Below, one piece after another: positions 47,968 to 64,000 of a stretch of 64,000 bases of DNA. This stretch comes from an uncultured bacterium (GTDB lineage: Bacteria; Actinomycetota; Acidimicrobiia; Spongiisociales; UBA5794), in the NCBI GenBank assembly GCA_963801165.1, contig CAWDDT010000011.1, forward strand, positions 384,001-448,000, given 5' to 3'. Every line of letters starts with the position of its first letter. The first letter of the stretch is position 1. Under the pieces are notes generated by a model. That model was not told the origin of the DNA and made no database searches. It saw only the letters and a list, made by a program, of their open reading frames with translations. Both the position numbers and the translations under genes were made by a program.

Positions 47968-49220
47968 CGGCGCCCCACCATCCGCCGCACGGCGAGCGCA
48001 ACGTCAGTCGGCTGTGCCCGCACCATCGACGACACGAACCCGTCGACGGTCCCATATCCGAGGGTGGCGCCGAGAGTGAACGCCAAATACAACGCATCCG
48101 CGACGGCCGTCTCGCCGACCCAGGAGACCGCTACGGGCTCGCCGATCAACAGATCCTGCCATCGCTCGTCGCCGATAACCAGATGGATGCCCCGGCCGCC
48201 CCGCACAAACTCCAACCACTGCCGGTCGGCGGGTGTGTCGTCCACCATCGCACAGAACGAGCCGGCATATGGAGCCATGTCCCCGGACCGGATCAGGGGC
48301 AGACCGAGCGGCTCGGCAAGACGCTCGGCGTGCGGCCCGACCACGATGACGTCGCCTTCGGGCAGCGGCCCGCAGTGGGGCGCCACGGTAGCGGCGATGC
48401 GGTCGATCCAACCCATGTCGTCATTCCCGTCGAGATCGGTGACCGCGGCGATGATCGGGGCGGGGAGACCGAGCCTGAGCAGAGCCGTGGTGCTCCAAGC
48501 GATCCGGCCCATGCCATGGGGAGCGTCGATCGGCTCCGCGGTACGCCACCAACCGGTGTCGCCATCTGCCACCGTCATGTCCTGGTCGGGTGCCGTCTCC
48601 CGCTCATCAACCGGGGCCGGCTCCGCGTAATCCTCTCCCGCGGCCTCCGTGACCTCCACGGCGAGCAATGCCGGGAAGACCACAGCCGGCGTCTCGACCT
48701 CGGGATCTGTAGGTGCGACCTCGGATTGCCGAGCGTCTTCGGCAGGCTCGGGATCGGTGACTGCCAGCAGCGCCGGGCCCACGACGACGGGCTCCGGGAC
48801 CTCGTCGGCAAACGGGGGCACGAAATGCACTTCGGGTGCGCTGTCCTCGAGCGGCTCGGGGGCAGGCAGGGCGGCAACGCCGCCGTCCTCGTCCGCTACC
48901 GCCAGCTCACGCTGTAGCACCGTCCGGAAGTCGGAGTCTTCGGCGTCGGCGCTCTGCGCCATCCGCTCCAACACGTCGGCGATCCCTCCACCCTGAGGCC
49001 GGGAAGGCGGGCGAAACTGTGCCGGAGCCGCGGTGCGCCGCCGCCTGGCGGTCAGCTGCACCATCTCCTTGGCAAAGAATCCACCCACTCCACCGCGGTG
49101 TACCTTCTGGGCCCGCATGATCTCGGCATCCTCGCCAAACTGGGCAGAGATCTCGGCAAGGGCATCTTCGACGGTCGGGGCTTCGACCGTCACCTGGTCG
49201 GGGTTGGCTGATTCAAGCAT
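47964..49220 (-). CDS. FlhF-like protein lacking an intact GTPase P-loop
   Basis: N-terminal TVEDALAEI..GEDAEI..GGVGGFFAKE resembles the FlhF start; follows flhA; VIVVGPHAERL where VGPTGxGKT is expected. Confidence 0.65.
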   Translation of the reverse strand: MLESANPDQVTVEAPTVEDALAEISAQFGEDAEIMRAQKVHRGGVGGFFAKEMVQLTARRRRTAAPAQFRPPSRPQGGGIADVLERMAQSADAEDSDFRTVLQRELAVADEDGGVAALPAPEPLEDSAPEVHFVPPFADEVPEPVVVGPALLAVTDPEPAEDARQSEVAPTDPEVETPAVVFPALLAVEVTEAAGEDYAEPAPVDERETAPDQDMTVADGDTGWWRTAEPIDAPHGMGRIAWSTTALLRLGLPAPIIAAVTDLDGNDDMGWIDRIAATVAPHCGPLPEGDVIVVGPHAERLAEPLGLPLIRSGDMAPYAGSFCAMVDDTPADRQWLEFVRGGRGIHLVIGDERWQDLLIGEPVAVSWVGETAVADALYLAFTLGATLGYGTVDGFVSSMVRAQPTDVALAVRRMVGRR

Positions 49221-51258
49221 TTGCTAACGCTGCTCCTATGACTCCGATTGGTTCGAGTTCGATATCTGGGGGAAGTTCGGGGTAAGCGAGAGCCGGTACG
49301 TCGAGTCCCATGCCGCGGAGGCTCTTGGTGAGCGGTCCACGCAGGGCCTGACCGACGACCAGCGCACACGGCTTCTGGGCCCTCGCCGCTGCTCCGGCGA
49401 GGTGGTCGACGTCGATACGCACGACGTCGAGCTTGGAGGGGTCCATCACGAGGAATATCTGCCCGTCGACCTCCCGCAAGGACTCGTGCATACCGGCTTC
49501 GAGGCTGGGGGCAAGGGTCATCACTGCGAGGTGTCCCTCCGGGGCAATCCTGGCGACGATCGAGCGACCGACCGCCACCCGGGCAGCGGAGGCCAATTGC
49601 TCGGCCGACTTCGTCTCGCGGGCACGGTTGGAGATGACCTCGACGATCGGCCCAAGGTCTCGAATCGAGACCCGGTCCTCGAGCAGCTTCCTCAGCACGC
49701 CGTGGAGCAGACCGAGCGGGAGGACCTCGGTCGATACCTCGTTGGCCAGGATCGGCTCGTCGTATCGAAGGCCGTCGACAAGGGCCTGGACGTCCTGCCG
49801 GCTCAGCAGCGAGGCGGCATTGGATCTGACCACCTCGGCCAGGTGGGTGACGATGACCGAGGAGCGGTCCACAGCGGTTGCACCGGTAGCGGCTGCGGCC
49901 GCTCGGGCCGAATCCGCCACCCAGAATGCCTTGAGCCCGAACACCGGCTCTACCGTCTCCGTTCCTCCCATGGCGCGCAGCTCCTCGCCGTCGCCGAGCG
50001 GAAGCGCCAGGATCTGATCTTGCGGTGCGGTCCCCCGCCCTACCTCGGTGCCGCGCAGCACGATGCTGTAGGTCGCAGGCGGGAGCGACACGTCGTCCCG
50101 CGTTCGGACGAACGGCATCACAACCCCGAGCTCGAGAGCGATCTGGCGGCGCAGCGACTTGACCCGATCGAGCAGGTCGCCCTTCTTGCCCGGATCTATG
50201 AGATCGAGGATGTCATAGGAGAGACGCAGCTCGAGCGGCTCGACTCGCATCTCCCCCATGAGCGCCTCGGGGGCATCGGGGTCGAACGCGACCGAAAGCG
50301 TCGCGTCGGCCTCGCTTGGCTCGATAGCGTCGAGAGCTGCCCGCCTGCTGCTGGCGAAGATGAGAATGCCGGCGAAAGCGAAGAACGGGATCTTGGGAAG
50401 ACCGGGCAACATGCCGAGACCCGCTACCGAGATGCCGGCAAAACGCATGGCTCTGGCGTTGCCAAACAGCTGGCTGCCGATCTCGGAACCGATGTCCTTC
50501 TCCGAACCTACCCTGGTCACGAGCAGGCCGGTAGAGATAGAAATCAGCAAAGCGGGAATCTGGCTCACCAGACCGTCACCAACCGAGAGCAACGAGAACG
50601 TGCTGACGGCCTCCGAGAAATTCATCCCGAGGACGCCCATCCCGACGGCCAGTCCGCCGAACAGGTTGATGACGACGATAACGATGCTGGCGATAGCATC
50701 GCCCTTGACGAACTTGGCGGCACCATCCATCGCCCCGTAGAAGTCTGCCTCGGTGGCGATGCGCTTGCGTTGAGCTCTCGCCTGGGTTTCGTCGATCAGA
50801 CCCGCACCCAGGTCGGCGTCGATGGCCATCTGCTTGCCGGGCATTGCGTCCAACGTGAACCTCGCCGCCACCTCGGCGACACGGGTGGCACCGTTGGTGA
50901 TGACAACGAACTGGATGACGATCAGGATCAGGAACACGACCAGACCGACGATCACCGAACTGCCGATCACGAAATTGCCAAAGGTGTCGATGACCTTCCC
51001 CGCGTTGCCGTCGAGGAGGATGAGCCTGGTCGAGGAGACATTGAGGGCCAGCCGGGTCAGCGTCGTCACCAGCAAGAGCGACGGGAACACCGAGAAATCG
51101 AGGCTGTCCGAGAGAAGGATGACACCGAGCAGCACGAGAACGGAGATCGTGATGTTGGCCGCCAGCATCGTGTCGAGCACCGTGGCCGAGATGGGAATGA
51201 TCATCATCAGGATCACCCCGATGAGGGTCATGGGAACGACAACCGAGGAGCGCTTCAT
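49213..51258 (-). CDS. flhA: Flagellar export protein FlhA
   Basis: FSVFPSLLL, RVAEVAARFTLDAMPGKQMAIDADL, FYGAMDGAAKFVKGDAIA. Confidence 0.97.
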   Translation of the reverse strand: MKRSSVVVPMTLIGVILMMIIPISATVLDTMLAANITISVLVLLGVILLSDSLDFSVFPSLLLVTTLTRLALNVSSTRLILLDGNAGKVIDTFGNFVIGSSVIVGLVVFLILIVIQFVVITNGATRVAEVAARFTLDAMPGKQMAIDADLGAGLIDETQARAQRKRIATEADFYGAMDGAAKFVKGDAIASIVIVVINLFGGLAVGMGVLGMNFSEAVSTFSLLSVGDGLVSQIPALLISISTGLLVTRVGSEKDIGSEIGSQLFGNARAMRFAGISVAGLGMLPGLPKIPFFAFAGILIFASSRRAALDAIEPSEADATLSVAFDPDAPEALMGEMRVEPLELRLSYDILDLIDPGKKGDLLDRVKSLRRQIALELGVVMPFVRTRDDVSLPPATYSIVLRGTEVGRGTAPQDQILALPLGDGEELRAMGGTETVEPVFGLKAFWVADSARAAAAATGATAVDRSSVIVTHLAEVVRSNAASLLSRQDVQALVDGLRYDEPILANEVSTEVLPLGLLHGVLRKLLEDRVSIRDLGPIVEVISNRARETKSAEQLASAARVAVGRSIVARIAPEGHLAVMTLAPSLEAGMHESLREVDGQIFLVMDPSKLDVVRIDVDHLAGAAARAQKPCALVVGQALRGPLTKSLRGMGLDVPALAYPELPPDIELEPIGVIGAALANA

Positions 51259-52301
51259 GCGACCTTCCTTCGGGGCCGGCGCCTATAGGCGACCGCAAGC
51301 ACGGCGGCCACCGCCTCGAACAGGTTCGCCGGGACGAACCCACCCAGCTTGACCCGCCGGTAGAGCGTCCGCGCCAGGGGCTTGTTCTCGACGAGGGGAA
51401 CACCGTTACGGCGGGCTTCGGCGCGGATCTTGGCGGCGATTCTGTTGGCGCCCTTGGCTACGATCCGGGGCGACGGCTCATCGGGTTCGTACTTCAGGGC
51501 GATGGCCAGCCGGGTCGGGTTGGTGATCACGACATCGGCGTTGGCCACATCGAAGATCATCCGGTTCCGGCTCATCTCCCGGGCACGCTGCCTCCGGGCC
51601 GACCGGACCATCGGGTCACCCTCAGACCGCTTGAACTCCTCCCGCATCTCCTGCTTGGTCATCTTCATCTCTTTGTTGTGACGGACGCGGGTGACGGCGT
51701 AGTCGGCACCGGCGATGACGACGGCAAGGCCGGCGGCCCGCAGCACGATGGCCCACACCTGGTCTCCGGTAAAAGAGATAGCGTCGATAATCCCCAGCGG
51801 CTCGCCGAGACGGTCCATCCAGGCCATCAGGGGCCCCCAGATGAATGCGACCAACAGCCCTACCTTGCCCACAGCCTTGACCAGCTCCCACATGAACACG
51901 GATGCCTTGAACCGGTTGAGGCCCTTCTTGAGGGAGAGGTTGGAGAGCTTGGGCTTTGCGGCCTTGGGGGCGATAGTGAACCCGACCTGGGCGACACCAC
52001 CGGCGATCCCAAAGACCACGGCGGCGACCAGGAACGGGACCAGCCCGACCAGGAGCATCGCCAGGACGTCCCCCTGGAGCTGTGGCTGAATCGTCCCCGT
52101 ACCGGCGACGGATAGGATGGAACGAACCCGCTCCGTTATGGCGCCGGCGGCGGGAGGGGCCATGAAACGGATGGCCAGGACGAGCATGATCATCGAGAGC
52201 GCAACGCCGACTTCCTGGGACTTGGCGACGCGACCCTCTTGGCGGGCATCCCGCTTACGTCGCTCTGACGGCTTTTCTGTCTTGTCCTGAGAACGGCTCA
52301 C
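51255..52301 (-). CDS. flhB: Flagellar export protein FlhB
   Basis: DKTEKPS, GRVAKSQE, KMTKQE..EGDP, VITNPTR autocleavage motif. Confidence 0.96.
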   Translation of the reverse strand: MSRSQDKTEKPSERRKRDARQEGRVAKSQEVGVALSMIMLVLAIRFMAPPAAGAITERVRSILSVAGTGTIQPQLQGDVLAMLLVGLVPFLVAAVVFGIAGGVAQVGFTIAPKAAKPKLSNLSLKKGLNRFKASVFMWELVKAVGKVGLLVAFIWGPLMAWMDRLGEPLGIIDAISFTGDQVWAIVLRAAGLAVVIAGADYAVTRVRHNKEMKMTKQEMREEFKRSEGDPMVRSARRQRAREMSRNRMIFDVANADVVITNPTRLAIALKYEPDEPSPRIVAKGANRIAAKIRAEARRNGVPLVENKPLARTLYRRVKLGGFVPANLFEAVAAVLAVAYRRRPRRKVA

Positions 52302-52367
52302 GCACGACTCCGGTAGTCGGTTCAGCCATTCCATTGGCAACGAAGCCGATCCTTCGGCCTTGTGACC

Positions 52368-52394
52368 CTGTCGGCGGGTGCGGAGACGACGTAA
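52368..52394 (-). promoter_or_regulatory. Sigma28-like promoter upstream of flhB
   Basis: TTAC-N15-GCCGACAG. Confidence 0.6.
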
Positions 52395-52531
52395 GGGGGT
52401 TGTGCGACGGGCGACAGACTCGGGACATTGGTCCCTAGCCACCGGCCGGCAGCCGAAGCAGAATGGATTCTCTGCTCGAGTCTGCGCCTCGGCAGCGGAG
52501 GGAAGATACCGGCTCACAAAGGAGTAGGCGG

Positions 52532-53629
52532 ATGGCCATTGAGGTTCGCAAGGTCGTGCTCGAGAGCGTCAGCGATGCATCTGGTCTGGCGGCTCTGATC
52601 GATGAGGGCGTCTTTGACGCCGACGGGGTGATCGCCGTCGTCGGCAAGACCGAAGGCAACGGCGGCGTGAACGACTTCACCCGCATCCTGGCCGACCAGG
52701 CGTTTCGCAAGGTCCTCATGGACAGGGGCACCCGCACCGAGGCGGAGGTGAAGGAGATCCCGATGGTCTGGTCGGGCGGCACCGACGGGATACTCTGCCC
52801 GCACGCCACGGTTTTTGCCCGGGTCACTACCGACGAGCCGGCAGGCGACGAGCCCCGGCTTGCCGTCGGGTACGCCATGAGCGACGTGATCCTTCCAGAG
52901 GACATCGGCCGCCCGGCGATGGTCGCCAAGGTGGCCGAGGGTGTCCGGAGAGCGATGAAGAAAGCCGGCATCGAAGACCCGGCCGATGTGCACTACGTCC
53001 AGACGAAGACCCCTTTGCTGGTGATGGAGACGATCAACGACGCCAAGTCGCGGGGAATGACCGTGTACACCGAGGATCCGCTCGAATCGATGAATGTGTC
53101 AAACGGCACCTCGGCACTCGGCATCGCGGTAGCGCTCAGTGAGATCGACATGCCTACCGCCGACCAGATCGGGCACGACCTCAGCCTGTACTCGTCTGTG
53201 GCCTCGTGCTCCTCGGGTGTCGAGCTGGATCAGGCACAGACGGTCGTCGTCGGCAACGTGCGCGGTGCCGGAGGTCGCTACCGCATCGGCCACGACGTGA
53301 TGCGGGATGCCCTCGACTTCGAAGGCGTGTACCGCGCCATTCGGTCCGCCGGTCTCGATCTGCCGGAGCGGGCGAGAGCCGAGGACCTGGACGGCAGGCT
53401 GGTCAACGTCTTCGCCAAATGCGAGGCGGACCCGACGTCCCGGTTGCGCGGACGGCGCCAGGTGTCGCTGGACGACTCGGATGTTCACCACCACCGGCAC
53501 ATCAAGGGCGCCGTCGGCGGTGTAATCGGCGCCGCGGTGGATGACGCCGCCGTATTCGTGTCTGTCGCCGCCCTGCACCAGGGCCCGAGCGGCGGAGGGC
53601 CGGTAGCGGCCATCGTCGACGTGGGATAG
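52532..53629 (+). CDS. Ring-opening amidohydrolase (AtzD/barbiturase family), barbiturase-type
   Basis: [33 protein letters not shown] and IK at positions where cyanuric acid hydrolases have Arg, [18 protein letters not shown]; closely recalls Rhodococcus barbiturase. Confidence 0.88.
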
Positions 53630-53631
53630 GG

Positions 53632-54471
53632 ATGATCTGTCCCGAGACGGCTGAAGTCGAGCGATCCCCGGTGCCCGTACGGGTGCCGGGGGTCGCGAGC
53701 ACGGCGATCCACGGTCTTCTCACAGGTATGGGAGCCGAGGCGACGGTGCTCGGCAGCTCCAGCCAGGCGGCGTGGCTACAAGCGGGCAGACGAGTTGTGG
53801 TGATCTCGACCGGTGACGGCGCCCGCCTCCCCAACAGCATCCGCCTCGCAGCAAAGTATGGAGACGAGGTGCTGCGGCGGATTGCCTCCGAAACCCGGGT
53901 ACTGGTCGGGCACGGCATGATCATGGTCGATGGCATCGCCGTTACGGCAACCAGGTGGTGGGACCCCCGTCCCGCACTTCCCACGTTCACCAGCGACACG
54001 TTGACAGCTCGCCTCCGGGGTCTTCCTGCCGGAGTTCCCGGCATCGACACGGCGTCGCTGCGGCTGGCTCTCGAAGTGGGCTCAGCGGGAGGGGTCCTGC
54101 ACTCGGCGCGTTCGCTACTCGGCAGAGGACCGGGCCTCACGCCCGAAGGAGACGACGTCCTGGCCGGTACACTGGCAGCAACCCGATTGCTCGGAGAGGC
54201 ACTCGGGCGAGAGAACAGCGTCGCCATGATTGCCGGCGTCTCGCCGCCTCTGGCCGAGCTCGCCGCACTACGAACGACCGCGTTCTCGGCGGCGCTCATC
54301 GAGATGGCGATGCAGGGCCAGGTGGTCGAGTCTGCGGGAGTGCTGTTGCGGGCGCTCGCCGGTCGCGGCGATGTCGCCGCCGCCCACCTCGGTTTGATCC
54401 GACTTGGGCACACATCCGGACCTGCCCTCGCTGCAGGCATCGTCTTGGGAGCACGTTCGCTAGTCAAATAG
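53632..54471 (+). CDS. DUF2877 / AllH (YlbF)-like protein
   Basis: LLGRGPGLTPEGDDVLAG, RTT..S, GHTSG. Confidence 0.88.
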   Translation: MICPETAEVERSPVPVRVPGVASTAIHGLLTGMGAEATVLGSSSQAAWLQAGRRVVVISTGDGARLPNSIRLAAKYGDEVLRRIASETRVLVGHGMIMVDGIAVTATRWWDPRPALPTFTSDTLTARLRGLPAGVPGIDTASLRLALEVGSAGGVLHSARSLLGRGPGLTPEGDDVLAGTLAATRLLGEALGRENSVAMIAGVSPPLAELAALRTTAFSAALIEMAMQGQVVESAGVLLRALAGRGDVAAAHLGLIRLGHTSGPALAAGIVLGARSLVK

Positions 54472-54490
54472 GCGTCAACGGAGGTTGGTG

Positions 54491-55921
54491 ATGGTTTCTC
54501 GAGTGGAGATACACCCCGGGCGGTACCACGACTCGGTTCGCCTGATGCAGGCGAGCAAGACACTCCAGAGTGTGCCGGGTGTAACGGACGCCCTCGTAGC
54601 GATGGCGACCGAGCTCAACCTGGCTCTACTCGCCGAGATGGGCTTCGATCTGACGCTCACAGCAGACGCCGGCCCCAACGATCTCGTGCTTGCCGTGAGG
54701 GCCGACAACGAGGAGGCGATCGCCGCCGCGAACCATGCCCTCGATGAAACTCTCAGCAGCAGGGCGGCGCCCGACGGAAGCCTCGACGCGCCTTCTCCAA
54801 AGAGGATCGGGTCGGCGGCAGATCTGAATGGGGCGAACATCGTGCTGCTATCGGTGCCGGGCGAACACGCCTTCGTCGAGGCAGCCGAGGCTCTCGACAC
54901 CGGACGCCACGTGATGATCTTCAGCGACAACGTGCCGCTGGAGCAGGAGCTCGTCCTGAAGAGACGCGGCGTGGAGCGCAAGCTGCTTGTGATGGGACCC
55001 GACTGCGGAACCGCCATCGTCCACGGACTCGGCCTGGGCTTCGCCAACGCCGTGCAACCGGGACCGGTCGGGATAGTCGGTGCCTCGGGGACGGGCATCC
55101 AACAGGTTTGCTGTCTCCTCGATGATGCGGGGGTCGGGGTCCGCCATGCGCTGGGGACGGGCAGCCACGATCTATCGGAGGAGATCGGCGGGCTCGCCAC
55201 TCTCCAGGCTCTGGCCGCCCTCGACGCCGACCCGTCAGTTGCGGTCATCGCGGTCATCTCCAAGCCGCCCGCTGCCACCGTTGCCGACAGGGTTCGAGCT
55301 GCGGCCGCCGGCTGCTCGAAACCGACCGTCATCATCTTCATGGGCGAAAGCACGCTAGAGGATGGCACCACGAAGATCCTGGATCGACTCGAGAAGCCTC
55401 CCGCCACCTACAGCACGTGGCCCACCGACCAGGATGGACATCGCCCCGGTACGGTGCGCGGGTTGTTCTCGGGCGGCACCCTGCGCGACGAAGCCCGTTT
55501 TGCGGCGACGCCCGGTCTCGGCGCCATAGGAAAGCACGAGGGCGAGACCGGCCATTGTTTCATCGACTACGGCGACGACGAGTACACGAGAGGGCGGGCG
55601 CATCCAATGATCGACCAGACGGTGCGTATCGATCGGCTGCGGGCAGCCACCGCCGATCCGTCGGTCGGGGTGATTCTCATCGACGTGGTCCTCGGCTACG
55701 GAGCCAACGCCGATCCGGCGCCTGAACTGGTCCCGGCGATCCAGCAGGCCGTCGCCGCCGGAGCGGCGGTCGTCATCTCCCTCTGCGGCACCGGCCGGGA
55801 CCCGCAGAATCGGGACCGGCAGGCAGAGATGCTCCAGGCGGCCGGTGCTTCCGTGTTGGTGTGCAACGCCGCGGCGGCCCGCGAGGCAGCCCGGCTGGCA
55901 ACGATAGGGAGTCAAGCATGA
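54491..55921 (+). CDS. fdrA: FdrA / AllF-like acyl-CoA synthetase-fold protein
   Basis: YHDSVRLM, SVPGEHA, IFSDNV, MGPDCGT, GASGTG, GLFSGGTL, DDEYTRGRAHPMID. Confidence 0.9.
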   Translation: MVSRVEIHPGRYHDSVRLMQASKTLQSVPGVTDALVAMATELNLALLAEMGFDLTLTADAGPNDLVLAVRADNEEAIAAANHALDETLSSRAAPDGSLDAPSPKRIGSAADLNGANIVLLSVPGEHAFVEAAEALDTGRHVMIFSDNVPLEQELVLKRRGVERKLLVMGPDCGTAIVHGLGLGFANAVQPGPVGIVGASGTGIQQVCCLLDDAGVGVRHALGTGSHDLSEEIGGLATLQALAALDADPSVAVIAVISKPPAATVADRVRAAAAGCSKPTVIIFMGESTLEDGTTKILDRLEKPPATYSTWPTDQDGHRPGTVRGLFSGGTLRDEARFAATPGLGAIGKHEGETGHCFIDYGDDEYTRGRAHPMIDQTVRIDRLRAATADPSVGVILIDVVLGYGANADPAPELVPAIQQAVAAGAAVVISLCGTGRDPQNRDRQAEMLQAAGASVLVCNAAAAREAARLATIGSQA

Positions 55922-57336
55922 CCGACCTCAACGAGCTCCTCGACACCGAGCCACGCGTGGCGACCGCGGGTGCGGACATGCTTGCCGACTCGATCGAGCA
56001 GCAAGGATCCGCCGTTTCCCGCGCCGACTGGCGCCCCCCGGTTCCCGGCACGGAAGCCGCGCTGGCCGATCTCGCCGCCGACGGGCGGATAGCCGAGGCC
56101 AACCGGACCGCCGTCGACCGCATGCTGGCAGTCCGCCCGCACCTGGCGGATGTCCGAACGGCACGGGAAGTGTTCCCCGACATGTCGGGCCGGACCCTGT
56201 TCCATGCCGGACCTCCGATCGACTGGGCTCGTGCCTCCGGCCCGATGCGCGGAGCAATCATCGGTGCGATGCTCTACGAAGGCTGGGCCGATGACGCGGA
56301 CGACGCCGCCACCCGGGCCGCTCACAACGAGGTCGAGCTCTCCCCGTGTCACCACCATGGCGCCGTGGGTCCGATGGCGGGCGTGGTCTCCCCGTCGATG
56401 CCGATCGCGGTCATCGAGGATGGAGCCGGTGCCGGAGTCTCGTACGCAACGCTGAACGAGGGTCTCGGCAAGGTCCTCCGCTACGGAGCGTTCGCTCCCG
56501 AGGTGATCGACCGGCTGCGATGGATGGATCGGGTACTCGGACCGGTGGTCGCCGCCGTGCTTCACGACCACGGTCCCGTCGATCTCCGATCGCTGATAGC
56601 CCAGGCTCTGCAGATGGGCGACGATGGGCACAACCGCAACCGCGCCGTCACCTCGCTGTTTCTTCGCGAAATCGGGGCCACTCTCGTCGCCGGCGCCGAT
56701 GCCACCGTCGACCAACGGCGCGAGGTGTTCGAGTTCATCAACAACAACGACCATTTCATGCTCAACCTGGTGATGGCCGCGGGCAAGCTCGCAGCCGATG
56801 CGGCTTCCGGCGTCCCCGCCTCGAGCCTCGTCACCGCCATGGCGCGCAACGGGACCGACTTCGGGATACGGTTGTCCGGAACGGGTGACCGCTGGTTCGT
56901 CGCACCGGCACCTCCCGTGGTCGGGCTCTACCTGGGCGGATACACCGAGGAGGACGCCAGCCCGGACATCGGTGACTCAACCATCACCGAGACGGTCGGG
57001 ATCGGTGGGTTCGCCATGGCCGCGGCACCCGCGATCGTCGGGTTCGTCGGCGGCACCGCCGCCGGTGCGGTACGGCGCACCCTCGCCATGTACGAGATCA
57101 CGGTGACCGAGCACCCGGCGTACCAGATCCCCATGCTCGAGTTCCGCGGCACACCCACCGGCATCGACGCCGCCAGGGTGGTCCGCACCGGTGTCGTGCC
57201 GCAGATCAACACCGGCATCGCCGGCAAGGTGCCGGGAACCGGCATGGTTGGCGCCGGCCTCGTCGAAGCCCCGATGCAGTGCTTCGCCGATGCCGTGCAG
57301 GCGCTGGCCGGAACGATCACAAGTCTGTCTACGTAG
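55918..57336 (+). CDS. DUF1116 / AllG (YlbE)-like protein
   Basis: HAGPP, PCHHHGAVGPMAG, NEGLGKVLRYGA, MGDDGHNRN, MARNG, PDIGDSTITE, INTGIA. Confidence 0.9.
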   Translation: MTDLNELLDTEPRVATAGADMLADSIEQQGSAVSRADWRPPVPGTEAALADLAADGRIAEANRTAVDRMLAVRPHLADVRTAREVFPDMSGRTLFHAGPPIDWARASGPMRGAIIGAMLYEGWADDADDAATRAAHNEVELSPCHHHGAVGPMAGVVSPSMPIAVIEDGAGAGVSYATLNEGLGKVLRYGAFAPEVIDRLRWMDRVLGPVVAAVLHDHGPVDLRSLIAQALQMGDDGHNRNRAVTSLFLREIGATLVAGADATVDQRREVFEFINNNDHFMLNLVMAAGKLAADAASGVPASSLVTAMARNGTDFGIRLSGTGDRWFVAPAPPVVGLYLGGYTEEDASPDIGDSTITETVGIGGFAMAAAPAIVGFVGGTAAGAVRRTLAMYEITVTEHPAYQIPMLEFRGTPTGIDAARVVRTGVVPQINTGIAGKVPGTGMVGAGLVEAPMQCFADAVQALAGTITSLST

Positions 57337-57374
57337 CCCGGTATACAATTTGTCAAAGATGGAGGAGGTTGGCT

Positions 57375-58259
57375 TTGGTCATCGCCAAGGATTTCGAGTA
57401 CCACCGCCCCACGACGCTGCAAGAGGCGTCGCAGCTTCTCGCCGACCACCCCGGCACGGCCCGAGTTCTCGCCGGAGGCACGGATCTGATCGCCTGGCTG
57501 CGCGACGGCGCGGTCGACCCCGACCTCGTGGTCGACATCAAATCCATCCCGGATCTGCACGACCTCAGCCTCGATGGCGACACGTTGCACATCGGGTCGT
57601 TGGTCACTTTCACCGATCTCATCCGCTCCGAGCTCATCGAGGCACGCGCACCTCTGTTCGCAGAGATGGCAGAGACCGTGGCTTCTCCCGGTATCCGCAA
57701 CCGGGCCACGTTGGTCGGCAATATCTGCTCGGCCATCCCATCTTGTGATGCCGGACCGGTGCTGCTGGCTTACGACACTACGGTCCACCTCGCAGGACCC
57801 GGCGGCACCAGAAGCGTCGGCATCAACCAGTGGTTCACGGGCCCGCGCCGAACCGTACGAAGTGACGACGAGATCGTTACGCATCTCACTGTCGCCGTAC
57901 CCACCCACGGTGGCGCCTACGTCAAGCTGATGCGTTACGCAGGTGAGGATCTCGCCCAGGCGGCCGTAGGCATCGTCGTGCTGCGCGGTGACGAGTACCG
58001 GGTGGCGTTTGGCGCGGTCGCCCCCACCCCGATCCGGTCGGCCCGGATCGAAGACGTACTTCGTGGAAGGCCACTCAGCGACGATCTCATCGCGGAGGCG
58101 GCTGCCATGGTCAAGGACGAGATCAGCCCGATCACCGACATAAGGGCAACCGCCACCTACCGCATCCGGATGACGGAGGTCATGCTGGAGCGTGGTCTTC
58201 CGGTGGCGAGAGACAGGCTCGATGGAAAAGGACCAGCGTACGGCACACGACTCATCTGA
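57375..58259 (+). CDS. Molybdenum hydroxylase FAD-binding subunit (CoxM/XdhB-like)
   Basis: FEYHRPTTL, LAGGTDL, IRNRATLVGN, PITDIRATATYR. Confidence 0.92.
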   Translation: MVIAKDFEYHRPTTLQEASQLLADHPGTARVLAGGTDLIAWLRDGAVDPDLVVDIKSIPDLHDLSLDGDTLHIGSLVTFTDLIRSELIEARAPLFAEMAETVASPGIRNRATLVGNICSAIPSCDAGPVLLAYDTTVHLAGPGGTRSVGINQWFTGPRRTVRSDDEIVTHLTVAVPTHGGAYVKLMRYAGEDLAQAAVGIVVLRGDEYRVAFGAVAPTPIRSARIEDVLRGRPLSDDLIAEAAAMVKDEISPITDIRATATYRIRMTEVMLERGLPVARDRLDGKGPAYGTRLI

Positions 58260-58290
58260 GACCCGATCGAGATGGGGTGAGAGGACAGCA

Positions 58291-58779
58291 ATGGAGTTAA
58301 CGATCAATGTCAACGGAGAGCGCTGGGACATCGATGTCGCCCCCAACGATGTGCTTCTCGACGTCCTCCGCGAGAGGGTCGGTGTCAAGAGCCCCAAGAT
58401 CGGATGCGAGCGTGGGGACTGTGGATCGTGCACCATCCTTCTCGACGGAACCACTGTCCGCAGCTGTCTCGTGCTGGCGATCGAAGTCGACGGTCATGGG
58501 ATAACCACCGTCGAAGGTATCGGCCATGACGAGCTCAGCCACTTACAGAATCTGCTGCTCCAAAACAACTCGTTCCAGTGTGGGTTCTGCGCACCGGGTA
58601 TCGTGCTGGCGGCCACCGAGCTGCTCGACAACAACCCGAACCCGACCCGACATGACGTTCAGGAGGCTCTTGCCGGCAACCTGTGCCGGTGCACCGGATA
58701 CGAACCGATAATCGAAGCGGTCTTGAGGGCGGGTCATCCCGTTGAATCGGGGGCCGACTTGCAGGGAGGTACCACGTGA
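58291..58779 (+). CDS. Molybdenum hydroxylase 2Fe-2S subunit (CoxS/XdhC-like)
   Basis: GCERGDCGSCT, SCL, QCGFCAPG, NLCRCTGY. Confidence 0.95.
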   Translation: MELTINVNGERWDIDVAPNDVLLDVLRERVGVKSPKIGCERGDCGSCTILLDGTTVRSCLVLAIEVDGHGITTVEGIGHDELSHLQNLLLQNNSFQCGFCAPGIVLAATELLDNNPNPTRHDVQEALAGNLCRCTGYEPIIEAVLRAGHPVESGADLQGGTT

Positions 58780-61154
58780 CCACGACATATCCGTTCGAAG
58801 CCGACGCACCCGTCAAAGAGCTGCAATCAGTCGGCACCGGGGCGATCCGCATCGACGGTCTGGAGAAGATCAGCGGCGCCGCTCAGTTCGTCGACGACAT
58901 CGACTTCGGCCCCGGGTTGCTGCACGCAGCCATCCTGGAGAGCCCGCACGCTCATGCCCGCATCGTCTCGATAGACACAGCTAAGGCTGAGAACGCTCCG
59001 GGCGTGGTGAAAGTCGTGACCGGCAAGGACTTCCCGTACAAGTTCGGCATGTACATGGAGGACCGCTACATCTTCGCCCAGGATCACGTCCGGTTTGCCG
59101 GCGAGCAGGTCGCCGGTGTAATCGCCCGTTCCCATCGGCAAGCCGTCCAGGCGCTCGAGCTGATCGACGTCGAGTACGACGTGCTGACACCGCTGTTCGA
59201 TCCCAAGGAGGCGGTGGCAGACGGAGCAGATCTAATCCACCCGGATCTCGGCAACTACACCCATGTGCCCTGGTTCTTCCCGACTGCGAACACCAACATC
59301 GCCCACTGGCGCAAGGTCCGCAAAGGCGATACCGAGAAGGCGTTTGCCGAGGCGGACTTCGTCCTGGCCGACACTTACCGGGTTCCCCGTTACGCCCACT
59401 GCGCCATCGAGCCGCACGTCACGGTAAGCAAGCTCGACCATGCCGGCAGGTTGACCGTTTGGACCGCATCGCAATCGCCGCATACCCAGCGGCACCTCTT
59501 CGCCGAGGCACTTGCCCCCCTCGGGTTCACCCACAAAGACGTCAGGGTGATCACCCCGTACATCGGTGGCGGCTTCGGCGGCAAGGCCGGGGTCTCGATG
59601 GAGATCATGGGGGCGGCCATGGCCACCCTGGTCAAGGGCCGGCCGATCAAGATGCGTTGGACGCGGGAACAGGAGTTCTACAACACCTACCAGCGCCAGG
59701 GCGTCATCGCCGAGTTGAAGGTCGGCGTCATGAACGACGGCACCATCACCGCGGTCGAGCACAAGCTCTACTGGGACGCAGGCGCTTACGTCGAATACGG
59801 CGCAAACGTGGTCAACGCCGCCGGTCTTTCGGCGAGCGGTCCCTACCGGGTGCCCAACATCACCAACGACTCGCTGTGCGTCTACACCAACCTGCCGCCC
59901 GGTGGGCCGTACCGCGGCTTCGGGTACTCGGAGTTCCACTTCGGTCTCGAATCGCACATGGACCGCATCGCCGAGGCGATCGGGATGGACCCGGTGGAGT
60001 TCCGCAAGAAGAACGCCATAGAGGAGGGCGACGAGCTCGCCTACGGCGCCCATATGAACCCGTCGGGTCTCATCGAGGCGATCGACAAGGTTGCTGCCGC
60101 CATCGAATGGGGCGTCCCGGAGGAATCGGCTAACCCGAACACAGTGATGGGCAAGGGAATCGCGTGCTTCTGGAAGGCGCCGGCGATGCCGCCAAACGCC
60201 TCGTCTGCCTCGTTTCTCAAGTTCAACGAAGACGGCAGCATCAACATCAGCGTGTCCGGCATGGAGCTAGGGCAGGGCTACCTGACCGTGATGGCCCAGA
60301 TCGCTTCGGAGATCCTCACCGTTCCGGTGGCGAAGATCAGGGTCGAGACACCCGATACCGACCGCAACCCGTACGAATGGCAGACGGTCGCCTCCCACGT
60401 CACGTGGAGCTCGGGGCTCGCTGTCGAGAAGGCAGCGGTGGAGGCGCGGGCGAAGATCTTCGAGGTGATCCACGAGGCCTACGGCTACGAGGACGACTCG
60501 CTGTACCTGGAGGACGAGAGTGTCCGCTGCACGACCGACCCGGGGTTCGCCAAACCACTACGTGAATTCGTCATCGACGGCATCCAGACCGACGACGGCA
60601 CCTGGAGGGGCGGACCGATCATCGCCAGCGGAAAGTTCATGCCCGATTTCACAAACGCCAACAGCGATCCCGAGACCGGGCAAGGCGGACATCCCAACGT
60701 CCATTACACGGTCGGCACCTGCGGGGTGGTGCTCGAGATCGACAAGGACACCGGGCGGATCTGGGTACGCAAAGCGGCACTCGCGGTCGACGCCGGTCGT
60801 GCCATCAACCCGGACCTTGTCAAAGGGCAGATCGTCGGCGGTCTGGTGCAAGGCCTCGCCACCGTGCTCTATGAGGACATGCGCTTCGACGAGAACGGCA
60901 AGATGCTGAATCCGACGTTCACCGACTACAAGATCCCGACGGCCTTCGACATCCCGGACGAGATCGTACCGATCATCGTCGAGGTGCCCCAGCCCGACGG
61001 CCCGTTCGGAGCCCGCGGGGTCGGCGAGCACACCATGATCGCCGCAGCCCCTGCGATCGCCAACGCGGTCTACAACGCTCTGGGAACCCGTATCACGTCG
61101 ATGCCGGTCACCCAGGAGAAGATTGCAATGTCGCTACTCGAGAAGAGGAGTTGA
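58776..61154 (+). CDS. Molybdenum hydroxylase large (molybdopterin) subunit, xanthine dehydrogenase family
   Basis: IGGGFGGK, PYRGFG, ELGQG, GQIVGG, DYKIPT, GARGVGE; lacks the AYxCSFR motif of aerobic CO dehydrogenase. Confidence 0.93.
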   Translation: MTTTYPFEADAPVKELQSVGTGAIRIDGLEKISGAAQFVDDIDFGPGLLHAAILESPHAHARIVSIDTAKAENAPGVVKVVTGKDFPYKFGMYMEDRYIFAQDHVRFAGEQVAGVIARSHRQAVQALELIDVEYDVLTPLFDPKEAVADGADLIHPDLGNYTHVPWFFPTANTNIAHWRKVRKGDTEKAFAEADFVLADTYRVPRYAHCAIEPHVTVSKLDHAGRLTVWTASQSPHTQRHLFAEALAPLGFTHKDVRVITPYIGGGFGGKAGVSMEIMGAAMATLVKGRPIKMRWTREQEFYNTYQRQGVIAELKVGVMNDGTITAVEHKLYWDAGAYVEYGANVVNAAGLSASGPYRVPNITNDSLCVYTNLPPGGPYRGFGYSEFHFGLESHMDRIAEAIGMDPVEFRKKNAIEEGDELAYGAHMNPSGLIEAIDKVAAAIEWGVPEESANPNTVMGKGIACFWKAPAMPPNASSASFLKFNEDGSINISVSGMELGQGYLTVMAQIASEILTVPVAKIRVETPDTDRNPYEWQTVASHVTWSSGLAVEKAAVEARAKIFEVIHEAYGYEDDSLYLEDESVRCTTDPGFAKPLREFVIDGIQTDDGTWRGGPIIASGKFMPDFTNANSDPETGQGGHPNVHYTVGTCGVVLEIDKDTGRIWVRKAALAVDAGRAINPDLVKGQIVGGLVQGLATVLYEDMRFDENGKMLNPTFTDYKIPTAFDIPDEIVPIIVEVPQPDGPFGARGVGEHTMIAAAPAIANAVYNALGTRITSMPVTQEKIAMSLLEKRS

Positions 61155-61160
61155 GCGCAC

Positions 61161-61919
61161 ATGTCTGTTGATCTGGAGAAGATCCTGCGGCCGGTCGAGC
61201 ATCCGATGACGCCGTACGATCCCAAATACATGATGCTCGCCAGCGGTGAGGCGGTGGTGGTCCGGCAGGTGTTCCGGGACGAGATCCCCGATCTCCTCAA
61301 GCACGTCGAGCCGCTGATCCATGTAGAGCGCGACTTCTACGACGTTGTGGCGGCCCGCGTCTACGCCGAGCTGCTCGGCTACTACAGATACCGGTTCCAA
61401 GACCAGTACGTGCTGGCACTCCAGGTCGACGGCGAGCTGGCTGCCATCGTCAACGGGCGCCAGATCAACCCCAAGCTGGGTCTGTCGCTGCACACGCTGG
61501 CAATGCGGCGCGGGCTACGGGTGGGCGCGCACGGGTTCGCCGCCAAGATGGAGTATCACATCGACACTCTCGGTCACGACGAGGTTCTCGTCGTTGCCGA
61601 GTCCCCGATCGGATTCAGGCGCTGGATGCTCGAGTACGAGTTGGAGAAGCGCTTCGACACTCCCCATGAGCTCGGTGGCGTCCCATCGTGGGCGCTCACC
61701 CGTGAGCTGTTCAACAGGGCCCGTTCCAAGCTGGTTGTGGGGAGACGCCCGGTGCCTCCCGACATCCTCGGCAAGGCAATGGAGAAGATCCTGCCGCCGT
61801 CGGATCCGCCGACACCGCCGCTCGATCCGATGGCCGCCACGAGGGCGCTGTACGACCCGACCGGTACGGCCCTCGTCCAGCAGCGCTGGGAGATGGAGAA
61901 AGGGATGGAGCATGCGTGA
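61161..61919 (+). CDS. Uncharacterised protein, possibly GNAT-fold
   Basis: YVLALQVDGELAAIV strand pair and RRGLRVG motif-A-like segment; tightly spaced within the operon. Confidence 0.55.
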   Translation: MSVDLEKILRPVEHPMTPYDPKYMMLASGEAVVVRQVFRDEIPDLLKHVEPLIHVERDFYDVVAARVYAELLGYYRYRFQDQYVLALQVDGELAAIVNGRQINPKLGLSLHTLAMRRGLRVGAHGFAAKMEYHIDTLGHDEVLVVAESPIGFRRWMLEYELEKRFDTPHELGGVPSWALTRELFNRARSKLVVGRRPVPPDILGKAMEKILPPSDPPTPPLDPMAATRALYDPTGTALVQQRWEMEKGMEHA

Positions 61920-63087
61920 CGTGTACGTAGCCGGGATCGGCATCACCACCTTCACCCGGCTCGAGTACCCGTTGACGGAGATCGCCGCCTACGCCTCGAT
62001 GATGGCTCTCCGGGATGCCGGCGTCACCGAGGTCGACCAGATCTACGTCGCCAATATGGGAGCGGCGAGGATAAACCATCAGACCGCACTTGCCAGTGCC
62101 GTGGCCGACAGCCTCAGCCTGCTTCCGGCGGGCGCCGCCTCTATCGAGAACGGCCCTGCGTCCGGTGCTGCCGCCATCAAGGCCGGCTTCCAGGCGGTTG
62201 CGTCGGGGATGGACGACGTCGTGCTGGTGGCCGGGGCGGAGCGGATGCGCGAGGTCAACAACCTCGAGGCAACCGATTTTGTCGCCACCCTCACCCATCC
62301 GATCACCGAGTACATCTACGGGGTGACCCTGCCGGCGCACGCCGCCATGTTCGCCCGGCTCTACATGGACAGATACGGTGTCACCGAACGGCATCTCGCC
62401 ATGGTCGGCGTCAAGAACCAGAACGCCGCTCTCAACAATCAGTGGGCTCATCTGCAACAGGCGATCACGCTCGAGGGCATCCTCGACTCGCCAGAGGCGA
62501 TGACCAACAACCCGTACGTTGCCGAGCCGTTGCGCTTCTTCGATGCCTGCCCGGTCTCCGATGGCGGGGCAGCTCTTGTGCTGGTCTCCGAGGAGAAGGC
62601 TCGGGAGTTGGGCCGGCCCATGATCCGCATCACAGGGATCGGGCAGGCAACCGACACGCACGCCGTCTTCGAGCGGGAGGAGCCGACAGATCTGCTCGCA
62701 GTTCGCCTGGCGGCAAATGCCGCCTACGAGATGGCGGGCGTCGGCCCCGAGGACATCGACGTCGCGGAATTGCACGACGCTTTCACCATCCTCGAGATCG
62801 CCGAGAGCGAGGAGGTCGGCTTCTTCCCCAAGGGCGAGGGACACCTGGCGTTGGAGAAGGGCGACACCGCGCTCGGCGGCAAGATCCCGATCAACGTCGG
62901 CGGCGGGCTCAAGGGCCGCGGCCACCCGGTGGGGGCAACCGGCGTCGCCCAGGCATGGGAGATCGTCACCCAACTGCGTGGTGACGGCGGCAAGCGTCAG
63001 GTAGAGGGCGCCAGGACCGGGCTGACCCTCAACTTCGGCGGATTCGGCAACAACGTCGTCTGCCTGATTTTCCAGAGGGAGGACTGA
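61912..63087 (+). CDS. SCP2-type thiolase-fold protein lacking the nucleophilic Cys
   Basis: CPVSDGGAA, AELHDAFT, GHPVGATG; ENGPASG where ExACASG is expected. Confidence 0.88.
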   Translation: MRDVYVAGIGITTFTRLEYPLTEIAAYASMMALRDAGVTEVDQIYVANMGAARINHQTALASAVADSLSLLPAGAASIENGPASGAAAIKAGFQAVASGMDDVVLVAGAERMREVNNLEATDFVATLTHPITEYIYGVTLPAHAAMFARLYMDRYGVTERHLAMVGVKNQNAALNNQWAHLQQAITLEGILDSPEAMTNNPYVAEPLRFFDACPVSDGGAALVLVSEEKARELGRPMIRITGIGQATDTHAVFEREEPTDLLAVRLAANAAYEMAGVGPEDIDVAELHDAFTILEIAESEEVGFFPKGEGHLALEKGDTALGGKIPINVGGGLKGRGHPVGATGVAQAWEIVTQLRGDGGKRQVEGARTGLTLNFGGFGNNVVCLIFQRED

Positions 63088-63434
63088 TGGCTCGCGAGAT
63101 CTACGCATACAAGTGTCGGCGGTGCGGGACTTTGCACTACCCGATGCGCATGGTGTGCAAGGGCTGCAAGCAGAACGACTTCTTCGAGTTCGACGCGGTG
63201 CCGCTGCCGAAGACCGGCAAGCTGGTCACCTTCACTACGGTGTACAACCTGCCGGCACAGTACGAGGTACCCACGCTCGGGCTGGGCGTAGTCGAACTCG
63301 AGAACGGGATGCGCATGCTGGGACAGATCGAGATCGACAACCCCAAGATCGGGATGCCGGTCAAGGGGGCGGTCAGAATCGTCCGCCGTGAGGCATACGA
63401 CAACTATTACGGGATGGTCTTCTCCGCGGCGTGA
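63087..63434 (+). CDS. DUF35 Zn-ribbon/OB-fold protein
   Basis: CRRCG..YP..VCKGC, GKLVTFT, GVVELENG; adjacent to thiolase. Confidence 0.9.
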   Translation: MAREIYAYKCRRCGTLHYPMRMVCKGCKQNDFFEFDAVPLPKTGKLVTFTTVYNLPAQYEVPTLGLGVVELENGMRMLGQIEIDNPKIGMPVKGAVRIVRREAYDNYYGMVFSAA

Positions 63435-63532: not shown

Positions 63533-64000
63533 CTACATCATGCCCCGCAACGCGGTGCGGAAGGTGTCCTGGACGATGTGGAGCACACCGTCCATCGTCT
63601 CGGGGACGAGCAAAAGGACTGCGCCGACGCTGGCGAACGCGGCGAACAGCTTGATCGGCAGGCCGATGAGGAACACGTTGGACTGCGGGGCGAACCGGGC
63701 GGCGATGCCGAGGACGACCTCCGCAATGAACAGAGCAGCCAGCGCCGGCATCGCCATCTCGACCGCCCCGATGAGCATGCGGCCCATCAGGTCGAGAGCG
63801 ACGTCGGCGAGCCCGCCCGACAAGGCGATAGTCCCCGTGATCGGCACGGCGTCGAAGCTGAGGCGGAGACCGGCTACGAGCAGATGGTCACCGCCGAGCA
63901 CTAGAAACAGGGTCACCGCCATCACGTTGAAGATCCGGCCGAAGATGGTGACCCGGTCATTGGACATCGGGTCGAAGACCTGCGCCACGCTCAAGCTCGA
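63533..64000 (-). CDS. fliR: Flagellar export protein FliR (5-prime truncated by window edge)
   Basis: QVFDP, GGDHLL..SF..VP, LGIAARFAPQSNVFLIGLPIK. Confidence 0.93.
   Translation of the reverse strand, partial: SSLSVAQVFDPMSNDRVTIFGRIFNVMAVTLFLVLGGDHLLVAGLRLSFDAVPITGTIALSGGLADVALDLMGRMLIGAVEMAMPALAALFIAEVVLGIAARFAPQSNVFLIGLPIKLFAAFASVGAVLLLVPETMDGVLHIVQDTFRTALRGMM

Follow-up and report, generated by a model that had tools for sequence, protein, structure and literature searches.

Here we describe a predicted route of pyrimidine base breakdown encoded in a 64,000-nucleotide (nt) stretch of contig CAWDDT010000011.1 from an uncultured bacterium of the class Acidimicrobiia; the whole of this stretch is referred to as the window. 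Ten + strand genes of the window are read as one operon for the oxidative breakdown of a pyrimidine-type base with a phosphorolytic, urea-free lower branch, a reading to which we give a probability of about 60%. The genes encode a barbiturase (gene bar), homologs of the E. coli subunits AllH, AllF and AllG (together AllHFG), a three-subunit molybdenum (Mo) hydroxylase, and GNAT-fold, thiolase-like and DUF35 proteins (Table 1). AllHFG are most likely tied functionally to barbiturase and would make carbamoyl phosphate from its ring-opened product, as indicated by synteny, the adjacency of carbamate kinase in relatives, co-occurrence in 17/17 genomes, a bar-specific AllG clade and the exception of Rhodococcus.

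In the proposed pathway, the Mo hydroxylase would oxidize a base, on the simplest guess uracil or thymine, to barbiturate, and barbiturase would open the ring to produce ureidomalonate, a step that is well supported by sequence. AllH/AllF/AllG would then move the carbamoyl group of this N-acylurea to phosphate, producing carbamoyl phosphate and malonamate, as gene context and phylogeny suggest; for the side of cleavage, the E. coli conversion of oxalurate to oxamate and carbamoyl phosphate serves as the assumed model. The sole carbamate kinase of the genome, acting in trans, would convert carbamoyl phosphate to ATP, NH3 and CO2. In a further, speculative step, a complex of the GNAT-fold, thiolase-like and DUF35 proteins probably carries out coenzyme A (CoA)-dependent work on the three-carbon remainder. 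The AllHFG branch would replace the hydrolytic ureidomalonase step of Rhodococcus, which yields urea and malonate.

No genes seem so far to have been assigned to the steps that follow barbiturase in the oxidative pyrimidine pathway, for which urea plus malonate is the sole known outcome. Among open-access papers and preprints, none was found that links barbiturase with AllFGH, DUF1116 or DUF2877, nor any in which the genes of uracil dehydrogenase or ureidomalonase are named; to our knowledge, ureidomalonase is an orphan enzyme. The comparative pattern argues for a second solution, widespread among Acidimicrobiia, many Actinomycetes and Nitriliruptorales, and suggests an undescribed, energy-saving route of bacterial pyrimidine base breakdown. 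If this is true, the energy of the acylurea bond would be kept as carbamoyl phosphate and hence as ATP, urease would not be needed, and the AllFGH family would gain a second physiological substrate, which would suggest that its members are acylurea phosphorylases more generally. Gene candidates follow for three functions: bar-allHFG-carbamate kinase for the new branch, an amidase of R. erythropolis for ureidomalonase, and the Rhodococcus Mo enzyme for uracil/thymine dehydrogenase.

Barbiturase and its link to AllH, AllF and AllG

Gene families were assigned from Pfam and NCBIfam scans; two mislabelled chromosomes from a plasmid collection, which came without annotation, were used as DNA only. 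The hydrolase encoded by the first gene covers the entire PF09663 profile (474 bits, profile positions 1-358 of 358) and scores 504 bits with TIGR02714 (cut-off 153). Its closest solved relative is the R. erythropolis barbiturase (5hwe, 524 bits), while cyanuric acid hydrolases score 307, 305, 304, 249 and 239 bits. Five active-site positions divide barbiturases (Asn, His, Lys, Val, Ser/Ala) from cyanuric acid hydrolases, for which the AtzD signature is Arg195, Thr321, Arg325, Gly345 and Gly346 (Peat et al. 2013, PMC3758960, in the portion of the paper used here). In the alignment, the window hydrolase has the full barbiturase signature (Asn191, His321, Lys325, Val345 and Ala346), aligned with Asn194, His324, Lys328, Val348 and Ser349 of 5hwe (chain numbering minus 20), and the AtzD-like signature is absent. 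An earlier note on this DNA had called the hydrolase a barbiturase, and by its sequence this identity is well supported. The start at 52532 given in that note stands, with AAGGAG 7 nt upstream. Barbiturase is reported to be specific for barbiturate (PMC4051656, in the extract consulted).

The AllH-AllF-AllG trio follows barbiturase directly, as had been noticed earlier, with matches to PF11392, NF004760 (just under its cut-off) and PF06545. Identities to the E. coli proteins are 41% for AllF (FdrA), 46% for AllG (YlbE) and 35% over 125 residues for AllH (YlbF). The spacings between bar, allH, allF and allG are 2, 19 to 31 (depending on the allF start) and -4 nt; the start options of allF are ATG 54491, GTG 54488 and TTG 54485, and a GGAGG lies upstream of ATG 54491. 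E. coli AllFGH is described as oxamate carbamoyltransferase, with AllK as its carbamate kinase (PMC11326118, in the part seen). The window shares with this system the three subunit families, the proposed reaction (N-acylurea plus phosphate to carbamoyl phosphate plus amide) and a carbamate kinase partner, the last in the window's relatives. It differs in gene order (H-F-G versus F-G-H-K in E. coli), in having no allantoin genes nearby, in a separate AllG clade and in a shorter AllF C-terminus, and the predicted substrate is one carbon longer than that of E. coli AllFGH. In comammox Nitrospira, allFGHK lie beside triuret/biuret genes, which the authors read as oxalurate degradation (PMC12625717, in the section available to us). 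There AllFGH and carbamate kinase likewise stand in an acylurea-type nitrogen context other than allantoin, but the locus as presented in that section has no AtzD-family hydrolase, unlike the window.

Linkage of these genes was surveyed in a first set of 80 loci closest to the window bar, mostly from metagenome-assembled genomes (MAGs) of Acidimicrobiia, 52 of which have at least 4.5 kb of downstream sequence. Both allF and allG lie downstream of bar in 49/52, one of the two in 1 and neither in 2, and an allH homolog follows bar in 47 related loci. The cluster, with its association of barbiturase and DUF2877, FdrA and DUF1116 proteins, is thus conserved in other genomes; a lack of such conservation, which the earlier note named as grounds for refutation, is not what is seen. 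In a phylum sample of 401 genomes, including the window's own, 17 genomes in 7 families (own included) have a barbiturase at a threshold of at least 69% identity; AllG is present in 17/17 of these and in 35 of the 384 remaining genomes without such a barbiturase, counts that overstate the association because related genomes are not independent, and that include four genomes marked unpublished (G273 in the former group; G244, G179 and G023 in the latter). In 12 of the 16 other barbiturase genomes, bar and AllG share a contig, ∼6-44 kb apart, and the window copy is the sole AllG of its genome. An AllG tree was built with a quick IQ-TREE run, SH-aLRT being the only support measure, from 50 rows representing hand-picked loci, with matches shorter than 300 residues or containing a stop dropped. 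All bar-linked AllG rows (26/26) form one clade (SH-aLRT 96), and E. coli AllG is placed elsewhere.

The window contains no carbamate kinase, as stated before; the genome has a single one on another contig (G000:C4:94724-95653; TIGR00746, 378 bits versus a cut-off of 358). Carbamate kinase follows bar in 15 of the 80 first-set loci (NF009007, 307 bits versus a cut-off of 266). A second set, retrieved with the Embleya barbiturase as query, comprises 79 Actinomycetes loci, 72 with enough upstream flank. Carbamate kinase is present in 60/72 of these and ends at most 400 nt from the bar start in 59/72. In this set allF or allG lies within 10 kb in only 11/79 loci; AllG occurs exactly once in 5/5 Actinomycetes genomes tested, and in at least 4 of them it shares a contig with bar, ∼13-56 kb from it. 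In Pimelobacter simplex, carbamate kinase abuts bar and allHFG lie ∼15-18 kb away. NCS2 permeases and PucR regulators occur in related bar loci. Carbamoyl phosphate is the likely product of the branch on these sequence comparisons, and phosphorolytic cleavage of ureidomalonate by AllHFG, as put forward in the earlier note, gains strong comparative support.

The window's Rhodococcus counterparts were located with a short motif from the solved barbiturase. In four genomes, including R. erythropolis NBRC 15567, bar is 68% identical to that of the window (with the same signature in R. erythropolis), and both AllG and carbamate kinase are absent (0/4 each). In R. erythropolis, UPRTase is encoded beside bar, and the surrounding genes include those for a class-III aminotransferase, NCS2 permeases, PucR regulators, CoA-transferase III, a carboxyltransferase, HyuA/HyuB and a Mo enzyme with CoxG. 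Directly after bar comes an amidase-family gene (PF01425, 288 bits; L294 16025-17518 in NBRC 15567, G406:C20), which is a candidate for ureidomalonase; the best match to it in the window's genome is 27% identical. The CoxG-associated Mo enzyme, encoded a few genes past the amidase, is a candidate uracil/thymine dehydrogenase. The reported R. erythropolis products, formed through a hydrolytic ureidomalonase, are urea and malonate (Soong et al. 2001, as cited in the parts of PMC3758960 and PMC4051656 used here). The two systems have in common the barbiturase, an XDH (xanthine dehydrogenase)-family three-subunit Mo enzyme in the cluster and, for the window's relatives, a nucleobase context; they differ in that the window has AllHFG, a Mo enzyme of another clade and the GNAT/thiolase-like/DUF35 trio, and Rhodococcus none of the AllG and carbamate kinase genes. 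Two alternative lower branches would account for this pattern, one presumably using the amidase (Rhodococcus) and the other AllHFG with carbamate kinase (elsewhere).

Some further loci bear on these families. The carbamate kinase gene of the window's genome lies in a - strand run (G000:C4:92000-96700; L088 7002-11631) with an aspartate/ornithine-type carbamoyltransferase (TIGR00670, 266 versus 237 bits) and two pyridoxal phosphate enzymes (threonine-synthase-like and cysteine-synthase-like), with a divergent GntR regulator alongside. The genome also carries an orphan AllH paralog (G000:C5:57856-58707; locus L397 7856-8707; PF11392, 64 bits) that is 54% identical to the window AllH and lies between HypA/ParA-like genes and an APH_6_hur kinase gene. 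The same flanks enclose bar-allH-allF-allG in, e.g., L024, so that the orphan AllH seems to be what is left of an older bar locus in this genome, with the complete operon in the flagellar region. In locus L393 (G091:C6:98001-116000), an AtzD-family gene lies ∼4 kb from allF-allG; at only 45-47% identity to the window bar it falls outside the barbiturase clade, which suggests that AllFGH also pairs with other AtzD-family ring-opening hydrolases. A bar-less arrangement in L379, L381 and L382 (G296, G363 and G270) comprises a Mo enzyme, HyuA and HyuB (ATP-dependent hydantoinase type), AllF and AllG; L382 further has AllH and a PF04199 hydrolase. AllG of this arrangement forms the sister clade of bar-linked AllG.

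Molybdenum hydroxylase and the GNAT-fold, thiolase-like and DUF35 proteins

Domains of the XDH family were matched in all three Mo subunits (Table 1). The large subunit reaches no NCBIfam equivalog cut-off, the best scores being those of XdhA (512 versus 780 bits) and 4-hydroxybenzoyl-CoA reductase alpha (481 versus 995 bits), and its closest solved relative is also 4-hydroxybenzoyl-CoA reductase alpha (338 bits). Orthologs in Verrucomicrobiota are 69-70% identical. Given its low identity to the Rhodococcus Mo enzyme and its kinship with 4-hydroxybenzoyl-CoA reductase, uracil as the substrate is only a guess.

The Mo, GNAT, thiolase-like and DUF35 genes are a separate evolutionary module. This module occurs together with bar-allHFG in 21 of 53 loci with enough flank; it precedes bar in L041, L042 and L373, and lies tens of kb away in L298 and L299 (versus L027 and L024). 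Bar loci further removed from that of the window have another Mo type with CoxG, CN-hydrolase and HyuA in its place. An NCS2 permease (xanthine/uracil family) follows DUF35 in many Acidimicrobiia loci. Outside the Actinomycetota, the module is present at 68-75% identity in Verrucomicrobiota, Kiritimatiellae, Elusimicrobiota and one deltaproteobacterial MAG. Verrucomicrobiota and Elusimicrobiota loci that extend far enough encode GNAT, thiolase-like and DUF35 proteins, AllH, AllF, AllG, a PF04199 'cyclase' hydrolase and the FAD, FeS and molybdenum cofactor subunits (e.g. L352 10001-20671, and likewise L330-L364), and the shorter Kiritimatiellae loci encode at least GNAT, thiolase-like and DUF35. 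No AtzD-family gene was found in 5/5 such barbiturase-less module genomes, in a search for which the window's own genome worked as positive control, and AllG of the PF04199-type operons belongs to a different clade from bar-linked AllG. The combination of a ring amidohydrolase with AllHFG thus recurs with the module, and the hydrolase is exchangeable.

The 252-residue protein has no Pfam or NCBIfam match at E ≤0.001. It has 3050 homologs; among the 120 listed, all are named 'hypothetical protein'. Its AlphaFold2 (AF2) model (pLDDT 65, low after residue 195) has a GNAT fold: the top-listed Foldseek matches in the PDB are nearly all GNAT acetyltransferases (E from 1.7e-6, probability 1.00, TM to target 0.5-0.66), and the ESM Atlas also points to this fold. 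At the strand-to-helix junction where GNATs have their loop for the acyl-CoA pyrophosphate (R/Q-x-x-G-x-G/A), the protein has an invariant RRGLRxGA (116-123), an imperfect match to that loop. An identity like malonyl-CoA decarboxylase was considered and dropped, no such enzyme being among the Foldseek matches listed. A search of the 401-genome sample for this protein returned only the window's own copy, so the sample is uninformative on its partners. The gene contains a 49-nt direct repeat of 76% identity (61174-61222 and 61780-61828) that encodes a proline-rich 'EKILxP...' stretch near both termini.

The thiolase-like protein matches PF22691 (147 bits) and PF00108 (83 bits), covering N- and C-terminal domains. 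Its nearest solved relatives are acetyl-CoA acetyltransferase 7yvy (268 bits), 4yzo and the archaeal thiolase 6esq (206 bits), and it aligns end to end with 7yvy and 6esq. The earlier designation as a thiolase holds for the fold, which is retained along with the His of GHPVGATG, but not for the chemistry: Pro82 in ENGPASG takes the place of the acyl-accepting Cys of EAACASG, and as judged from this replacement the protein cannot be a classical thiolase. The Pro is invariant in 24/24 orthologs (one more row does not cover the site), in 19/19 rows of alignment A2 and in a Verrucomicrobiota copy. Ltp2 is a cysteine-less SCP2-thiolase-like aldolase that works with the DUF35 domain of ChsH2 in steroid side-chain cleavage. 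Ltp2/ChsH2 thus shares with the window a thiolase fold without the acyl-accepting Cys beside a DUF35; it is nevertheless distant from the window protein (PDB 6ok1, 120 bits), and the window has neither a hydratase partner nor steroid genes. The zinc-ribbon cysteines of the window DUF35 protein (C10, C13, C24 and C27) are conserved in every one of 22 sequences.

Overlaps of 8 and 1 nt join the GNAT, thiolase-like and DUF35 genes, and modelling supports one complex of their products. A three-chain model gives an ipSAE of 0.67 between the GNAT protein and the thiolase-like/DUF35 pair, with 0.00 for the best of three controls; a score of 0.67 was reached by 58/80 solved complexes and 2/110 mismatched pairs, counts that are rough guides here, where own alignments and three chains were used. 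Three model runs share at least 72% of contacts, with partner pLDDT of at least 75. The modelled contact involves residues 183-201 of the thiolase-like protein, a stretch with an insertion absent from 7yvy and 6esq, and residues 53-63 of DUF35. We know of no solved GNAT/thiolase/DUF35 complex, and a high score through a memorised structure therefore seems unlikely. The archaeal acetoacetyl-CoA thiolase/HMG-CoA synthase/DUF35 complex (6esq) has the same thiolase subfamily, a DUF35 and a third CoA-type enzyme; the predicted window complex differs in its GNAT-fold third partner in place of HMG-CoA synthase, in the missing nucleophilic Cys and in the extra insertion of the contact stretch. The comparison brings to light a predicted complex of GNAT-fold, Cys-less thiolase-fold and DUF35 proteins that is conserved across phyla.

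A role of these three proteins in handling the three-carbon product is possible. In relatives, a CN-hydrolase or amidase together with CoA-transferase III and a carboxyltransferase appears to cover this task, and since other enzymes seem to do so there, such a role is plausible here. A fuller version of the pathway, which we regard as unlikely, is a complete, urea-free and ATP-yielding route from uracil to acetyl-CoA, with AllHFG as ureidomalonate phosphorylase and GNAT/thiolase-fold/DUF35 as a new channelling complex. In it the GNAT subunit would swap the amide nitrogen of malonamate for CoA, an uphill reaction, and the Cys-less thiolase-fold subunit would decarboxylate the bound malonyl-CoA to acetyl-CoA and so pull the uphill step, by a logic like that of the archaeal thiolase/HMG-CoA synthase/DUF35 complex. 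The same complex would serve a parallel Verrucomicrobiota pathway, with a PF04199 hydrolase in place of barbiturase.

Weighing of the proposed pathway and its rivals

Several points weigh against an oxidative pyrimidine pathway with a phosphorolytic lower branch. Identities beyond the family level are drawn from context. The hydrolase also passes the NCBIfam equivalog NF052395 'cyanuric acid amidohydrolase' (461 versus a cut-off of 360 bits), which is probably a weakness of that model, by which barbiturases are likely mislabelled and auto-annotated as cyanuric acid hydrolases. AllF scores 418 bits with NF004760 (cut-off 433), the last ∼60 profile positions being missing; two flank-sufficient loci, L079 and L028, have no allF or allG near bar; and the genome counts are inflated by relatedness. 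Carbamate kinase is missing from the window, and the cluster around the genome's own kinase and carbamoyltransferase genes looks unrelated to the operon. The window contains no transporter or regulator, and by Pfam the operon has no amidase-family gene and none for malonamate. The Mo large subunit is 27-29% identical to the bar-adjacent Mo enzymes of R. erythropolis, Embleya and P. simplex. The Mo hydroxylase of the earlier note therefore stands as an XDH-family three-subunit enzyme but not as the type adjacent to bar in Rhodococcus. Lastly, the module occurs without barbiturase across phyla, with AllHFG and a PF04199 hydrolase; its presence in barbiturase-less genomes means that its substrate need not be a barbiturate precursor.

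This last point leads to the main rival, which we consider possible, if somewhat unlikely. It retains the lower branch, but the true substrate would not be uracil or thymine: the Mo enzyme and the GNAT/thiolase-like/DUF35 proteins would form an upper module making a cyclic ureide from another N-heterocycle or from a substituted or CoA-bound pyrimidine, and the ureide would be opened by barbiturase or, in Verrucomicrobiota, by the PF04199 hydrolase. The four kinds of genes always travel together, at varying positions relative to bar-allHFG, and across phyla the well conserved module is paired with a different AllG clade and ring hydrolase; a CoA thioester is the substrate of the Mo subunit's closest solved relative, and the bar-adjacent Mo enzyme of Rhodococcus is of another type. 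An upper module of this kind is harder to square with the NCS2 permease that follows DUF35 in many Acidimicrobiia loci, with the lack of a CoA ligase or transferase in the operon to make a CoA-bound substrate, and with the barbiturate specificity reported for barbiturase (PMC4051656, in the same extract).

The lower branch itself could be the classical hydrolytic one, ending in urea and malonate through an unrecognised ureidomalonase, with AllHFG a mere neighbor acting on a substrate of its own. The products reported for R. erythropolis (cited in the part of PMC3758960 used) and the window's lack of carbamate kinase fit this account, which is nonetheless very unlikely in view of the tight bar-allH-allF-allG spacing and the order kept in 49/52 loci, the 17/17 co-occurrence of bar and AllG, the separate clade of bar-linked AllG, the complete lack of AllG and carbamate kinase in the Rhodococcus genomes, and the poor best match (27%) to the R. 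erythropolis amidase in the window's genome. A purine/allantoin branch, with the Mo enzyme as xanthine dehydrogenase and AllHFG as a true oxamate carbamoyltransferase on oxalurate, is a weak alternative and the most improbable of these readings. The only characterised AllFGH acts on oxalurate (going by the part of PMC11326118 seen), PucR-type regulators and NCS2 permeases serve purine catabolism too, and XdhA is the top NCBIfam match of the Mo subunit. Its score, however, stays well below the xanthine dehydrogenase cut-off, the window AllG and E. coli AllG fall into different clades, and the hydrolase has the barbiturase signature. AllD, AllC, AllE and allantoinase are not found in the window, and in a profile search of the genome AllD (best 198 versus a cut-off of 496 bits) and allantoinase (268 versus 358 bits) fall so far short that no route to oxalurate is apparent. 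No AllC, AllD or AllE homolog lies beside AllG in 18/18 other loci of the phylum, where its neighbors are carbamate kinase, Mo enzymes, HyuAB or a PF04199 hydrolase. With the oxidative pyrimidine pathway and its phosphorolytic branch preferred, the interpretation in the earlier note is, as a whole, partly supported.

Operon layout and genomic setting

The ten closely spaced, co-oriented genes described in the earlier note are indeed present (52532-63434), with intergenic gaps of -8 to +38 nt. Gene starts were taken partly from gene calling based on GC content at third codon positions (GC3), which recovered 9/10 operon genes; it missed allH (GC3 0.73), which is supported by Pfam. The start of the 2Fe-2S subunit at 58291 comes from this calling and is uncertain, an earlier in-frame ATG being possible. 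The ten-gene arrangement is far beyond chance, as the same gene order is found in dozens of other genomes.

Table 1. Genes of the operon and of its two borders, with positions in the window
Gene product	Position	Strand	Basis
Barbiturase, AtzD/Bar family, Group VI type, 365 aa	52532..53629	+	PF09663 474 bits
AllH-like subunit (DUF2877), 279 aa	53632..54471	+	PF11392 74 bits
AllF/FdrA-like subunit, CoA-binding and CoA-ligase domains	54491..55921	+	NF004760, PF00549, PF02629
AllG-like subunit (DUF1116), 472 aa	55918..57336	+	PF06545 305 bits
Molybdenum hydroxylase FAD-binding subunit	57375..58259	+	PF00941, PF03450; no NCBIfam equivalog cut-off reached
Molybdenum hydroxylase 2Fe-2S subunit	58291..58779	+	PF01799, PF00111
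Molybdopterin-binding large subunit, 792 aa	58776..61154	+	PF02738, PF20256, PF01315
GNAT-fold protein, unnamed family, 252 aa	61161..61919	+	Fold model; no Pfam/NCBIfam match
Thiolase-fold protein without nucleophilic cysteine, 391 aa	61912..63087	+	PF22691, PF00108
DUF35 protein, zinc ribbon and OB fold, 115 aa	63087..63434	+	PF01796, PF12172
FlhB (flhB), left border	51255..52193 (longest open reading frame to 52517)	-	PF01312 336 bits; start from GC3 calling
First right-border gene	63533..64000	-	GC3 0.90; candidate fliR by size and position

The operon is an island within a flagellar gene region. By GC3-based calling, the genes flanking it on either side are on the - strand, with flhB and flhA on the left; to the right, the 63533-64000 gene is followed by 89- and 230-residue - strand genes and then by fliL, motB, motA, fliI and fliG. 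The 11-kb operon, on the strand opposite to its neighbors, splits the flagellar export set into flhB/flhA (49213-52517) and three genes of a size and position fitting fliR/fliQ/fliP (63533-64000, continuing into locus L004). In the nearest relatives the operon lies at other sites, e.g. after adk-map in locus L005, and together with the split of the flagellar set this suggests relocation or transfer of the operon.

No flanking direct or inverted repeats hint at a mobile element, the sole island-spanning pair being 20 nt, 85% complementary and within coding sequence, and the GC content of the operon is no different from that of the flanks. A promoter scan gave no sigma-70-like site, and terminator-like sites were not above the expectation from shuffled sequence. 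The + strand open reading frames past DUF35 (from 63519 in the window; L004 1519-4254) were dropped as candidates, as they have no Pfam match and GC3 puts the real genes on the - strand. Elsewhere in the window, a gene for a small S-layer homology domain protein (PF00395, E 8e-5) at 46165-46809 adjoins flagellin and hook-associated genes.

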